Below are positions 6,310 to 34,019 of a stretch of DNA of 64,000 nt, one piece after another. Positions within the stretch are counted from its first letter, which is position 1. The number at the start of each line of letters is the position of its first letter. Source of the DNA: a virus (Duplodnaviria > Caudoviricetes). Made by a program: the position numbers and the translations under genes. Location of the stretch: positions 125,180 to 189,179 of IMG/VR virus record IMGVR_UViG_3300020577_008610. The stretch is one strand, 5' to 3'. The notes beneath the pieces are model-generated. The model did no database searches. It saw only the letters and a program-made list of their open reading frames with translations, and was not told the DNA's origin.

Positions 6310-7158
6310 ATGGACCCAAGCAATCTTCTGAAAGAATACATCAATGCCATCCTGGATTCCAGGGAAGAAGACTTCCAAAAGATTCAGGCAGCCAACGAGA
6401 GCTACGATGCTATCCTGGGCTATATCAGTAGGCTTGACAGAAACCCAAAGGCTTTTGCTCGCGTTTTCCAGGTCAATGACCAGGGTTTCTTTACAGGTTT
6501 TGCTTTGGGAGCCAGAGTGAGACGAGAAGAACACCTTCAATTGGCTGTGTTCTTCATGGACAGGGGGCTAGCTGGCATCAAAAGTAAAGTAAATGCCCAG
6601 GCTTCTCGAATCCGTGTGAGGCCGATGAGCACCACAGCAGCAGCCATCAAGGGCTATCAGATTAGGATCTACTTTGATGCCCCAGAAGAAGCCAGAACGA
6701 GCCCCAAAGCCTACAACAAGTGGCTTGCAGCCAACCTGGAAGACTTGCTGACGAACGACGGCACAAGGTCTTCTTACGTTCACGAATTCACTCACGTCCA
6801 AGATTTTAAGCGAATGGACCCTAGGTTTCTTCTTCGGAGAGGGCAGCAAAAGCAAGCCGAAAAAGAGAGACAGCAGCAAGCAGGTGAGAAGTCAAGAGAC
6901 TTTGGAGCCTATGCCAACGACCCCCTGGAGTTGAATGCCTACTTCTTTCAGGCCATGTCGGATGTGCAAACCCAACTCAGGAATGTAAAAACTCCCGAGG
7001 AGAAAAGAGCTATCATCGGCTCCTCCCCGCAAGAGTTCGTTGACAAGTTTATGGGAACCTACCTCAAGAAACAGGTCAGGAAAAATATCGACTCCGAGAA
7101 CTGGAAAAGGCTTGCCAAGAGGGCTGCTACTTCTTGGGAACTACTTATTGGAGTGTAA
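6310..7158 (+). CDS. zincin-like (HEFTH) protein with N-terminal leader; putative internal virion protein
   Basis: HEFTH followed by Y..DP.E.NAY; similar to 32052..32771; TAATTA upstream. Confidence 0.65.
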   Translation: MDPSNLLKEYINAILDSREEDFQKIQAANESYDAILGYISRLDRNPKAFARVFQVNDQGFFTGFALGARVRREEHLQLAVFFMDRGLAGIKSKVNAQASRIRVRPMSTTAAAIKGYQIRIYFDAPEEARTSPKAYNKWLAANLEDLLTNDGTRSSYVHEFTHVQDFKRMDPRFLLRRGQQKQAEKERQQQAGEKSRDFGAYANDPLELNAYFFQAMSDVQTQLRNVKTPEEKRAIIGSSPQEFVDKFMGTYLKKQVRKNIDSENWKRLAKRAATSWELLIGV

Positions 7159-7824: not shown

Positions 7825-8062
7825 GCAGTTTTCAGTGATACCCAGCACCCTTCGAGAAGTCGAGAGTCCCACAGATGGGAGATTGTCCTACTGGAAACAC
7901 TGGCTAAGAAGCTCTGGGTGTGCACACCCCGTGGTCTTATAGATTTGCGACCCAGGATTTAGAGCAAGATTGTCTTCTGGCCAATTTCTTAATGTTGCGG
8001 GGGTGATTACCGCAGTCTCAACTTCTCCAAGACCTTCCATTATACAGTGTATAATGGAGTAA
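7825..8062 (-). ncRNA. candidate structured RNA downstream of 8068..8574
   Basis: 10-bp hairpin CCATTATACA-N-TGTATAATGG (8037-8057); 12-bp long-range pair 7854-7865 with 8016-8027; internal hairpins; no ORF. Confidence 0.4.
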
Positions 8063-8638: not shown

Positions 8639-9211
8639 CTAGATGCTGGCTCGGGTGAAGGATTTCACTTCAACCTTCTCACCGCATTTGGCTGAGAATG
8701 CCTTGATGGCCTGTCCAACCGTCTGCTTGGAATCTAGCACAAACGGCTGCTCGGTCAAGACCTTTTCGGAGAAAACTTTCTGCATCTTGCCCTGGAAGGC
8801 TTTCTCCAGCTTCTCGCCCGTCATTCCACGCTTCTCCAGGTCGGAACGAGCAATCTCCTGCTCCGTGAGCAAGTCCTCGTCATCCATGTCTGCCACCGTC
8901 CTGGCAATCGGGTTGGAAGCCATCACGTGCATGGCGATGTTGTTGGCAAGCTCCTGGAACTCCGGGGTCCGAGCAACGAAGTCCGTCTCACAGGCAAGCA
9001 CTACCATCACACCCACACTCTTGTCGTGGTGGATGTAGGAGCCAACCACGCCAGCTTTGGCCGACCTTCCAGTGAAGCTGTCAGCCTTTGCCTCGCCCTT
9101 CTTCCGAAGGATCACCGTGGCCTTCTCAACGTCTCCATTCGCTTCCTTGAGGGCGGAAACGCATGCAGACATACCGGCACCAGTTCTGGCTCTGAGTTCT
9201 TGGATAGACAT
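8639..9211 (-). CDS. tsf: translation elongation factor Ts (short form)
   Basis: IQELRARTGAGMSACVSAL.EANGDVEKA..ILRKKG, CETDFVART, IAMHV, LTEQPFV; start set downstream of tRNA-Ser. Confidence 0.95.
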   Translation of the reverse strand: MSIQELRARTGAGMSACVSALKEANGDVEKATVILRKKGEAKADSFTGRSAKAGVVGSYIHHDKSVGVMVVLACETDFVARTPEFQELANNIAMHVMASNPIARTVADMDDEDLLTEQEIARSDLEKRGMTGEKLEKAFQGKMQKVFSEKVLTEQPFVLDSKQTVGQAIKAFSAKCGEKVEVKSFTRASI

Positions 9212-28598: not shown

Positions 28599-29030
28599 TT
28601 ATATTAACTTGGCTGCCCTGTAGTCCTTACGGCTCCAAGTCCTTGTACGATGACAGTTGGCACAAACCAACTCGCATTTGGCAACTTCCTCCCACATTCC
28701 TTGGCCGCTTCCGTTACGGATGAAATTAGAGACGTTATCAGCCTTTTGTGCTCTGTCCACGTGATCAAAATCCATGATGAAATGCGGGAAGAAGTTGCCG
28801 CAATCCTTGCATGGATGCTTTTCTTTGTACTCCCTCAAGGCTTCGAGGGCCCTCTGCCTTGTTCTCTTTCGAGATTCAGAGTACTCCTTTTTGTGGCGTT
28901 GAAAGTGAGAAGCTGTGAGCTTCGCAATGCACGATTTGCACTGCCGTACCCGCCTCTTGTCTTTTTTGGAGGCCCAAGAAAACAGCTCTTCTTCCTTTTC
29001 TTCACCGCACTTGATGCAAGTTTTCAACAT
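28599..29030 (-). CDS. HNH endonuclease-like protein with N-terminal Zn ribbon
   Basis: KTCIKCGEEK...CKSC; PCKDCG...MDFDH...EVAKCELVCANCHRTRT; paralog of 31055..31486. Confidence 0.85.
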   Translation of the reverse strand: MLKTCIKCGEEKEEELFSWASKKDKRRVRQCKSCIAKLTASHFQRHKKEYSESRKRTRQRALEALREYKEKHPCKDCGNFFPHFIMDFDHVDRAQKADNVSNFIRNGSGQGMWEEVAKCELVCANCHRTRTWSRKDYRAAKLI

Positions 29031-29157
29031 GAAAAAGCGTAACTCCAAGGGGGTACATTGTCAAGCGATGGCGTTGAACTTTGATTGAATCCAGCTGATC
29101 GGACTCGAATCTTCATTCTATTTCCCGATGATCGGATAGGATTCAATTAGCGCTTTG

Positions 29158-32051: not shown

Positions 32052-32771
32052 TTAGAAACTTCCGAACTCGGGTTCACCTTTGAACCCTGGCAGCCTCTTC
32101 TTAGCATACTCGATCCATGCCATCAAGAGGTTGTCGGTGAAATCTTCAGCTTCCTCTCGGGAGATTTGCTTCTTCTTCTGCAAGTCCCGGAAAAGCTCTC
32201 CCTTCTTGTCCTGCATCACCTGAAGGAGAGGAATCTTCTGGGTTTTGGCTTGTTTGTACATGCCCATCACCCAGGCTTCCACCTCGTGGGGTGCAAAGAA
32301 GTAGTTGTAAGCGGCATCCGTGGTGGCGTAGTGATCCGCTCCAGGCTCATATCCTGGATGTCCAGAGAGTCCAGGGTCCGTGAAGTGGATGCCTTGTTCT
32401 GGTCCTTCGTGGCCGCTTCTCTGGTCTTGCCTGTAGTGCTCCAGCTCATGCCGGATGGTGTTCTTCAGGGTGGGAATGAACTCAGAGAGTTGACGGTCAT
32501 TGAACTCAAAAGGCACAGCAACGTACACCTGGAGCCTGCGAATGGCATCGTTGTAGCCTCCACCAGCTTGGCGAAGGGGACCATTGTACCGCTTGAACTG
32601 AGCCTGAAGCAACAGGTCGTTGACCTGTCCCTTGAAAGGAGGAATCTCTTCCTGGTCCCGGTTCTTCTTCAGGTGATTCACAATCACCCTGGAGACTTGG
32701 GTGGTCAGGTTGTCCATGACCCCTTCACGGATTGCTTCTCGAATGAGTGCTACCAGCTCTCGCTTCTTCAT
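32052..32771 (-). CDS. zincin-like (HELEH) protein with N-terminal leader
   Basis: MKKRELVALIREAIREG; IRHELEH...YFFAPHEVEAW; TAATTA at 32782-32777. Confidence 0.7.
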   Translation of the reverse strand: MKKRELVALIREAIREGVMDNLTTQVSRVIVNHLKKNRDQEEIPPFKGQVNDLLLQAQFKRYNGPLRQAGGGYNDAIRRLQVYVAVPFEFNDRQLSEFIPTLKNTIRHELEHYRQDQRSGHEGPEQGIHFTDPGLSGHPGYEPGADHYATTDAAYNYFFAPHEVEAWVMGMYKQAKTQKIPLLQVMQDKKGELFRDLQKKKQISREEAEDFTDNLLMAWIEYAKKRLPGFKGEPEFGSF

Positions 32772-32958
32772 GCTGGTAATTATGAACAAAGGACCATTGC
32801 CGGTCTTGTTATCTTGCAACACCCTTTGGCCCGTGCTGGGTTACTCAAGTGATGCACCAACTAACCGAGCGGTCAAGCTGCTTTGAGAGCTACTAAAGCA
32901 AATTGAACCGCTGAGCCCCTGTTTGCCTAGGATATAACAGGCGCTTCTATTCATCCAG

Positions 32959-33033
32959 TGGGCCTCCCGGGATTTGAACCCGAACTTGACGGATTAAGAG
33001 TCCGCTGTGCTAAACCGTTGACACCAGAAGCCC
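32959..33033 (-). tRNA. tRNA-Lys(CTT)
   Basis: CGGA-CT-CTT-AA-TCCG; GGTTCAAATCC. Confidence 0.9.
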
Positions 33034-33243
33034 ATTAGGAAACGGTTGGGGTTATCGTGCTACCGCTTCACAAGCACCCAGGTTCTCCCACTGTCCTGGC
33101 AGTGTTCAGCCCAGGAGTAACCTTTTAAGGGGGTACCTGAGCCTATTGGTCGGGAGATGGTGGTCCTTGCCACCTCCTTGGTTCCAAGGTTGGTCTCAAT
33201 CCAGATTTCAGGGGCCCATATACTGGCCAGCGTTGAATTGAGA

Positions 33244-33319
33244 TGGTAGCCCCTGTGAGGATTGAACTCACCTGTACCGGTTTGTAGGACCGGCGCCCTC
33301 ACCAGAGTGCGAAGGAGCT
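33244..33319 (-). tRNA. tRNA-Val(TAC)
   Basis: CCGGT-CC-TAC-AA-ACCGG; AGCTCCT/AGGGGCT-A-CCA. Confidence 0.8.
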
Positions 33320-33321
33320 AA

Positions 33322-33810
33322 ACTGATTATTTCCGAGTCATTCCCGGCGCAGTACCACTTCCAAGGTTGCTTTCGCTTCACCTTAGAGGGCCTGTTTCCC
33401 ACCCTTTGCGGAATGGTAAGCCGTCTTTACTCGCTGGTTATCACCCTACAGGGCTACGTGCTCCCTGCTCGGCAACCCATGAGCCACATTAGTAACCCCA
33501 ATCCCAGGGCGTGGTTACCAGAAATTGACTTCTGGCTGGTGTCAAATACTCCCGATTTTCATCGTACGGACCAGGAGTGTTTGGCCACTCCCTGACATAC
33601 AGGATCTCTGTCTAGGTCCTAGAGGTTATTTTACGTCGGATTAGCGACGTTCCGTTGCCCAGTTTGGGCAACCAGGCATGAACCTTTTAAGGTTCCGGAA
33701 TTGAGGTTGGTTTCTCTTGAGTCTGTCAGCACCTCAAAACTGACAGAAAGAGACTAGTTGTCAAAGAGCAAAGAGTCCTCGGACTCTTGGAGGGAGCAGC
33801 CCTCCGACGT
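33322..33810 (-). ncRNA. large, highly structured ncRNA candidate (GOLLD/ROOL-like context)
   Basis: ~490 nt without a credible ORF, >10 hairpins incl. GNRA-capped GC-GAAA-GC and CCATTCC-GCAA-AGGGTGG, immediately upstream of tRNA-Val. Confidence 0.55.
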
Positions 33811-34019
33811 TTTTAAACTTAGCATCGGTCTCTTTGGCCGTCAAGGCGACCGGTTACGATTTCACTCCAAGAAGCGCTCGAAGCCAATCGGCCTTGGTGA
33901 GCACCATGTAAAGCACAGTGAGTCCCAGGAAGACCAGGACGAAAGCAAGGGCTCCAACGAGCCAAGAGAGAGCGGTTTTCAGTGCGGACGGAATTTCCAT
34001 GAGGTTCTCCTAGCTGTAA

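Follow-up and report, generated by a model that had tools for sequence, protein, structure and literature searches.

The tRNA cluster of phage T4 also yields co-transcribed stable RNAs, species 1 and 2 (rnaC/rnaD), which are ~140 nt in length and partly tRNA-like. For very large phages with dozens of tRNA genes, we know of no account of how long untranslated units escape Rho. The RNAs GOLLD and ROOL are located beside tRNAs in phages (bioRxiv 10.1101/2024.12.08.627333), and the locus described here resembles them in being a large folded non-coding stretch beside phage tRNA genes, without known function. A second comparison is offered by the leaders of rRNA (rrn) operons, where boxB is followed by boxA (PMC6614801), and by phage nut sites (boxB-boxA-boxC; NusB/NusE/NusA/NusG/SuhB). 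At the present locus, a hairpin followed by UGCUCUUUGACAA similarly heads an untranslated stable-RNA unit, although that unit consists of phage tRNA genes rather than rRNA, has no recognisable boxC, and would bind Nus factors only putatively.

The DNA analysed (the window) is the final 64 kb of a 189-kb IMG/VR virus record that is ~48% complete, and a record of this length at such completeness indicates a very large phage. ARAGORN located 24 tRNA genes within the window, the majority of them minus-strand genes in the interval 22-37 kb, and small minus-strand protein genes are interleaved with the tRNA genes of this array. A non-coding stretch at 33320-33853 is bounded by a 48-aa ORF on one side and tRNA-Val(tac) on the other. 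A first-pass annotation made from the sequence had placed a non-coding stretch of the array here, ending at tRNA-Val; its coordinates were right, and the stretch abuts the tRNA gene. We tentatively favour the reading that it constitutes a cis-acting, untranslated and structured 5' leader of a tRNA-Val/tRNA-Lys unit on the minus strand, carrying an antitermination signal of the rRNA type and cleaved by RNase P. Its likeliest role would be a function of a familiar type at a new location.

The stretch is non-coding. A six-frame stop map found all six frames of 33320-33853 to be broken, with the minus frames containing 7-10 stops each, of all three types, and six-frame tblastn of the region against all fetched loci gave no match. 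The longest open run, of 91 codons on the plus strand, starts inside the reverse complement of tRNA-Val, and had no match in Pfam, PHROG or a tblastn search against phages; the earlier statement that no credible ORF is present was therefore upheld. Public gene callers have annotated a plus-strand 'hypothetical protein' of 60 or 107 aa over the leader and the antisense of tRNA-Val (33272-33595). This call is probably spurious, as it exists only in strains at least 90% identical, and searches of a protein database retrieved only such variants of it (at least 90%). A 19-nt indel that separates the window from its nearest relative is not a multiple of three, which counts in favour of a non-coding leader.

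All eight inverted repeats listed in the first-pass annotation were recovered, each close to where it had been placed and all within 33517-33812. These 296 nt contain 8 perfect hairpins (defined by a stem of ≥6 bp and a loop of 3-12 nt), as compared with 0.74 ± 0.86 in dinucleotide shuffles, none of 1000 of which reached 8, and the genome mean for 296-nt windows is 1.05; the inverted repeats are indeed dense. Fold z-scores for the minus and plus strands were -4.58 and -4.13, respectively, over the full 534 nt, and -5.45 and -3.17 over 33517-33770; the minus strand of 33585-33812 gave -5.66, and coding controls lay between -2.3 and +0.8. When 250-nt windows were compared genome-wide on the minus strand with correction for G+C, those starting at 33447 and 33572 ranked 14th and 8th of 1512. 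The 197 nt adjoining tRNA-Val (33320-33516) fold in an ordinary manner (z -1.25 and +1.10), the structure being confined to ~300 nt of the stretch, and the z-scores of the 210-nt spacer beyond tRNA-Val (-1.4 and +0.8) were not significant. The hairpin excess and the strongly negative z-scores, larger on the minus strand, count in favour of the leader reading. Of the ornate ~490-nt RNA proposed initially, the non-coding length stands, as does folding far better than shuffles or the genome at large, but the signal resolves into ~8-10 short local hairpins, most of them perfect, over ~300 nt, with a poorly defined overall architecture and one hairpin cleanly absent from the nearest strain. The GNRA tetraloops proposed along with it were reduced to one clean GAAA (~33374-33371, on a 2-bp stem), the GCAA not being closed as a tetraloop.

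The minus strand is favoured as the RNA strand because of its stronger fold, the G.U pairs of hairpin H8 that can form on the minus strand only, and the minus-strand orientation of every neighbouring gene and tRNA, the last of which also counts for the leader reading. The difference in fold is evident at 33322-33571, for which the predicted energy was -83 kcal/mol on the minus strand vs -63 kcal/mol on the plus strand. Predicted features in the minus-strand reading are collected in Table 1. In the full-length fold, the local hairpins have pairing probabilities of 0.91-0.99, and long-range helices fall below 0.1. When the 5' domain is folded in isolation, the boxA-like stretch GCUCUUUGACAAC (33769-33757) is predicted to pair with 33600-33587 as a closing stem of a multi-branch domain. 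This stem has a probability below 0.1 in the full-length fold, and since chance alone would yield ~0.65 helices of this quality (11 bp, three G.U pairs) per 250 nt, the closing helix is not relied upon here; the interior of the domain moreover refolds in the sequence of the nearest relative. The 3' part of the stretch has a single stable hairpin, with a GAAA loop (33387-33360). The C/G ratio of 0.68 in these 3' 200 nt would be unfavourable to Rho loading, yet the neighbouring genes have the same composition. No direct repeats of the kind expected of a replication origin or iterons were found in the region, and that identity was rejected.

Table 1. Features of the non-coding stretch and its flanks, in window coordinates; hairpins, domain and promoter-like site are predictions from sequence.
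Feature	Position	Strand	Remarks
ORF, 48 aa, hydrophobic, small membrane protein	33854-34000	-	5' limit of the non-coding stretch; codon score positive
Promoter-like site, TTGACG, 17-nt spacer, TGc-TAAGTT (extended -10)	33816-33844	-	read from sequence
Hairpin H1, GGAGGG/CCCTCC	33789-33805	-	plus-strand reading (33787-33817) has the form of an intrinsic terminator with T-run
Hairpin H2, AAGAGTC-CGAG-GACTCTT	33771-33788	-	boxB-like by position; pairing probability 0.91
boxA-like 17-mer TGCTCTTTGACAACTAG	33754-33770	-	starts right behind H2
Predicted closed multi-branch (five-branch) domain	33587-33769	-	MFE matches centroid in isolated folds of 33517-33770 and 33585-33812
Hairpin H3	33747-33722	-	inside multi-branch domain
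Hairpin H4	33695-33680	-	inside multi-branch domain; deleted in L006 (33680-33698)
Hairpin H5	33672-33654	-	inside multi-branch domain
Hairpin H6	33650-33633	-	inside multi-branch domain
Small hairpin	33623-33611	-	inside multi-branch domain
Hairpin H8	33583-33543	-	G.U pairs on minus strand only; pairing probability (H8/H9) 0.94-0.97
Hairpin H9	33536-33517	-	pairing probability (H8/H9) 0.94-0.97
Putative leader, 3' part	33320-33516	-	G-rich, C-poor (C/G 0.68); not unusually structured
tRNA-Val(tac), CCA encoded	33244-33319	-	5' end sets the 3' end of the putative leader
210-nt spacer, then tRNA-Lys(ctt)	32958-33243	-	remainder of the presumed transcription unit

The head of the stretch presents, in minus-strand order, the stop of the 48-aa gene, a promoter-like site, H1, H2 and the boxA-like TGCTCTTTGACAACTAG. 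From the position of the promoter-like site, transcription may start at ~33808-33811. The site fails a consensus scan, with 3/6 positions in the -10 hexamer; promoter-like matches in the region are at noise level and the promoter would be weak, which counts against the leader reading. No site in the 189-kb record other than the boxA-like 13-mer TGCTCTTTGACAA (33758-33770, minus) comes within one mismatch of TGCTCTTTAACAA, and the placement of this 13-mer directly behind two hairpins, at the head of an untranslated stretch, speaks for a leader; on the other side, one such site arises in ~15% of shuffled genomes. The 13-mer agrees with the E. coli rrn boxA at 12 of 13 positions. H2 ends one base before boxA and is boxB-like in this position, but H2 and the U-rich sequence behind it also score as a weak minus-strand terminator, and this alternative reading of H2 and boxA weighs against a leader. 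No GU-rich motif resembling boxC could be recognised by eye in 33753-33700. Downstream of the boxA-like site are tRNA-Val and tRNA-Lys, both of them untranslated stable-RNA genes.

Across 185,579 species genomes, 21 exact occurrences of the 17-mer were counted, no more than chance would give. One of these occurrences, in a Phaeovulum genome, lies ~220 nt upstream of a 16S rRNA gene and is a genuine rrn leader; identity with a true rrn leader, together with the boxB-boxA order, counts for the leader reading. The 17-mer is also present in bacteria outside rrn leaders, including at a hairpin tail in Marinacidobacterales, and this counts against it. The Marinacidobacterales genomes (L095, L104 and L106) contain three copies of a repeat unit made up of a GC-rich hairpin, TGCTCTTTGACAACTAG and an ATG ~10 nt further on, without 16S motifs downstream, and indicate that the same 17-mer is used outside rRNA leaders in the manner of a terminator tail. 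Among ~0.85 Mb of fetched loci, no boxA-like site was found upstream of other huge-phage tRNA arrays, which counts against the leader reading, and a general rule of boxA before tRNA arrays in huge phages was rejected. In a separate case, a 15.7-kb viral contig (L108) has two exact copies of the E. coli-type boxA TGCTCTTTAACAA, at 7832-7844 and 9156-9168, which diverge at a distance of ~1.3 kb and recall paired nut sites in their arrangement.

For the start site, the binding of Nus factors, the protection from Rho and the processing of the leader, we infer the following course. Transcription would start shortly past the 48-aa gene, at ~33808, and two hairpins would form in the nascent RNA before the rRNA-operon-type boxA UGCUCUUUGACAA becomes exposed. 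Through boxA, RNA polymerase would then acquire the host's NusB/NusE antitermination complex, and the polymerase so equipped would escape Rho over an untranslated distance of >800 nt. Behind boxA, ~250 nt would fold into dense hairpins that deny Rho and nucleases a landing site, and RNase P, with an expected cut between 33320 and 33319, would free the leader at the 5' end of tRNA-Val. Such a leader would share with T4 species 1 and 2 the property of being a non-tRNA segment of a phage tRNA precursor, which in T4 is freed by tRNA-processing enzymes, but it has no sequence relation to them and no tRNA-like fold. If true, a leader that copies the host rRNA antitermination signal and adds hairpin packing would be a simple answer to the Rho problem. 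Its general importance is modest, since the element is lineage-specific and a candidate only.

Elsewhere in the same genome, a comparable hairpin count was reached only at ~121,300-121,776 of the record (G000; L133, 3300-3776, plus strand). The layout there comprises a gene, a strong terminator hairpin, a -10 look-alike (TGgTATACT), ~380 nt without a credible ORF, and tRNA-Arg(cct), all on the same strand, though without the terminator the fold z of this leader is only -1.6. With this second hairpin-rich, ORF-free stretch of ~400 nt located directly 5' of a tRNA gene, long leaders seem to be used repeatedly by the phage, a point in favour of the leader reading. The heads of both leaders carry TGNTANNNTTANAAACG, which is found nowhere else in the genome, the motif having been derived from these two sites. 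A promoter motif shared by both leaders was nonetheless rejected, as the 12/17 identity between their 70-nt heads is at chance level.

The only DNA homologue of the element was found in L006, a 3.3-kb ENA metagenome contig that is 95.7% identical over the region and 99% identical in the flanking genes, with the spacer and tRNA-Lys(ctt) (32958-33243) being 100% identical. L006 differs from the window by four substitutions and one 19-nt deletion, which removes H4 exactly (33680-33698). Two of the substitutions together invert the H2 loop, turning CGAG into its reverse complement CTCG; another falls between hairpins, and the last, A to G at 33580, converts an A-U pair of H8 to G.U, a pair that is kept on the minus strand only. 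A third strain is known through a protein proxy, namely 90-92% identical variants of the plus-strand ORF over 33272-33592 in a public protein collection, from which nine further changes were deduced. Three of these are at unpaired sites, four keep a pair (three C-G to U.G and one G.U to A-U) and two, at 33389 and 33552, break one, both of these breaks counting against the leader reading; a further change at 33574, to which the protein proxy would be blind, could restore the pair lost at 33552. Pairing is kept in five of the seven changes at paired sites, all in near-identical strains, where about half would be expected for transitions, and the excess is not significant. In the predicted fold, the strain differences appear mostly to spare pairs (loop flip, hairpin deletion, A-U to G.U and three C-G to U.G). 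In a distant syntenic relative, L027 (36% aa identity in ORF139), tRNA-Gly(gcc), ORF139 and tRNA-Lys(ctt) follow one another with no room for the element; its absence there, and the restriction of homologues to near-identical strains, count against a functional leader.

These strain comparisons bear chiefly on the main rival to a leader, a possible though rather doubtful one, according to which the stretch is a neutral, palindrome-rich spacer that was shaped by insertion and deletion of palindromes at the DNA level, template switching and back-to-back terminators, and whose only role at the RNA level is to separate transcription units. Most of the stems are perfect Watson-Crick palindromes that are equal on both strands, H1 is a good terminator on the plus strand and H2 a weak one on the minus strand, and the hairpin differences in L006, an exact hairpin deletion and a loop inversion, are typical palindrome mutations. 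Conservation confined to near-identical strains with absence from L027 is as expected of such a spacer, as is the visible divergence of the third strain, which at ~3-4% is no lower than in the flanks. Yet the eight-fold excess of hairpins over shuffles, within the top 1% of the genome, needs a cause; the minus-strand fold is clearly better and includes G.U pairs; and the boxA is identical to that of a real rrn leader and correctly placed.

Unlikely is a free, trans-acting structured RNA of a new class, ~300-490 nt in length, released by RNase P and directed at a host or phage target. Its position beside phage tRNAs would be like that of GOLLD and ROOL, the fold z is ~-5.5 with a well-defined centroid for the 5' domain, and the tRNA would supply a defined 3' end. 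The first-pass suggestion of membership in GOLLD, ROOL or another described class was not sustained, however, as Rfam 15 returned only tRNAs, both when the whole window was scanned at the gathering score and when 1.8 kb and 551 nt were scanned at E≤10 on both strands; the stretch thus cannot be recognised as a GOLLD or ROOL RNA, a group I or II intron, an RNase P RNA, a tmRNA, a 6S RNA or a riboswitch. GOLLD (RF01998) was rejected for want of a covariance-model match at the gathering score or E≤10 on either strand, and ROOL (RF03087) for want of one at E≤10. The comparison with both also fails in dimensions and form, in that the structured part here is ~300 nt vs 500-800 nt, and a chain of short perfect hairpins, not conserved across phages, stands in place of a conserved multi-domain architecture. 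A free RNA is further disfavoured by ill-defined long-range pairs, by the dispensability of one hairpin in L006 and by the unstructured 3' 200 nt.

The same reading is weakened by the outcome of the homologue searches, in which BLAST, nhmmer and a covariance model found no relative, whether in huge-phage loci totalling ~0.9 Mb or elsewhere in the genome of this phage. No diverged homologue turned up in any collection searched, including 50,697 phage records queried by blastn with the region, and no second copy was found in the phage's own genome. A covariance model of the 186-nt domain matched the window and L006 only, and two 17-18-mers from the RNA, used as queries, gave chance matches only. 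Alignment of ORF139 in metagenome contigs yielded 70 loci, only one of which (L006) carries the element, and ORF139 relatives in viral contigs added no further carrier; a public protein collection includes ORF139 relatives of 88% aa identity, encoded on a 29-kb JGI contig and a 10-kb Logan contig. Three relatives reached through their DUF2201 proteins (L003-L005) had no element match by blastn or nhmmer, the closest of them (L003, 78% aa) ending 171 nt beyond tRNA-Thr, before the region. Neither method found a match in ten unrelated huge-phage arrays reached via a tRNA-Val anticodon-arm pattern; none of 23 loci from a PyrF alignment (≤50% aa) carried the element; and ORF256 and the RNA ligase, used as baits, gave no useful relatives. 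If a free RNA were nevertheless to exist here, the few large phage RNAs with tRNA neighbours would gain one more member, an orphan.

A more specific version, which we consider improbable, is that the 5' 300 nt make up a stable RNA specific to the phage, acting in trans after release by RNase P, with a host-type boxA partly hidden in the closing stem. Were this so, the RNA might for example serve as a sponge for host Nus factors, diverting them from rRNA operons, or alternatively as a decoy for host defence that senses or cuts transcripts of tRNA regions; either would represent a new kind of phage take-over RNA.

There is an equally slim chance that the RNA lies on the plus strand, as an antisense small RNA which overlaps the reverse complement of the leader and ends at the intrinsic terminator at 33787-33817. 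That terminator-like site is among the three best in 18 kb, with 8 pairs that include a plus-only G.U followed by the T-run, and the plus-strand fold is itself significant (z -3.2 to -4.1). However, the plus strand has no promoter-like site, all neighbouring genes are on the minus strand, the plus strand folds less stably at every point and, over the 3' third, less well than shuffled sequence, and the change in L006 at 33580 would break a plus-strand pair.

Least probable by far is a decayed or recoded protein gene, or else an intron or split tRNA overlooked by the tools, an unlikely origin for which one may cite the group I intron within a tRNA gene of the array in the relative L005 and the 60-107-aa plus-strand ORF placed here by public gene callers, but which is at odds with minus frames that each contain stops of all three types, with the want of a protein family or tblastn match in any frame, with the want of an Intron_gpI, group II or extra tRNA match at E≤10, and with a complete tRNA-Val and flanks that hold no tRNA halves. 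A group I intron (RF00028) in particular was rejected, there being no match at E≤10 and the flanks being a complete tRNA-Val and a complete ORF. The L005 array served as a positive control in this regard, as the group I intron model reaches 52 bits in an ORF-free kilobase next to its tRNA genes. Like the element in the window, the L005 intron is ORF-free, highly folded, a few hundred nt in length and part of a huge-phage tRNA array; unlike it, the intron has its 52-bit score and is flanked by tRNA halves, whereas the element in the window has no score at all and lies between an intact tRNA gene and a protein gene.

The L005 intron was itself characterized a little further. Its Intron_gpI match (6742-6967, 52 bits) lies within 6440-7102 on the minus strand of that locus, the DUF2201 protein of which has 51% aa identity to that of the present phage. 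By eye, the intron separates the two halves of a tRNA that has a long variable arm and the loop CU-U|AA-AA. As judged from these letters, the host gene in this huge-phage array would be a tRNA-Leu(UAA) whose interruption falls at the position classically seen in cyanobacteria and plastids.

Several other features of the array and its relatives were noted. In L006, the 48-aa membrane ORF contains an in-frame insertion of 90 nt (30 codons), which argues that this ORF is a real gene of variable length. Between ORF157 and tRNA-Lys, L006 and the window share 99-100% identity, which then falls to ~60% across the ORF256 region, with a sharp mosaic boundary right after tRNA-Lys (window 32052-32957 vs L006 2092-2987); the pattern suggests recombination at the tRNA gene. 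A supposed conserved 'RNA' at 28.6-29.0 kb was rejected, as the region is a protein gene, namely an intact minus-strand ORF of 149 aa (28599-29048) between tRNA genes, with CxxC..CxxC..FDHVD..CANCH motifs and no Pfam match. From these motifs the product looks like an HNH-type endonuclease, and homologues of it were found between the tRNA genes of unrelated huge phages (L079, L110 and L080). The window also encodes an orotidine-5'-phosphate decarboxylase (PyrF, PF00215; 30329-31012, minus), whose relatives within the phage lineage are 92% and ~64% identical. The nearest named cellular homologues, at ~50% identity, come from Myxococcota/'Deltaproteobacteria' MAGs and may give a weak hint of the host.
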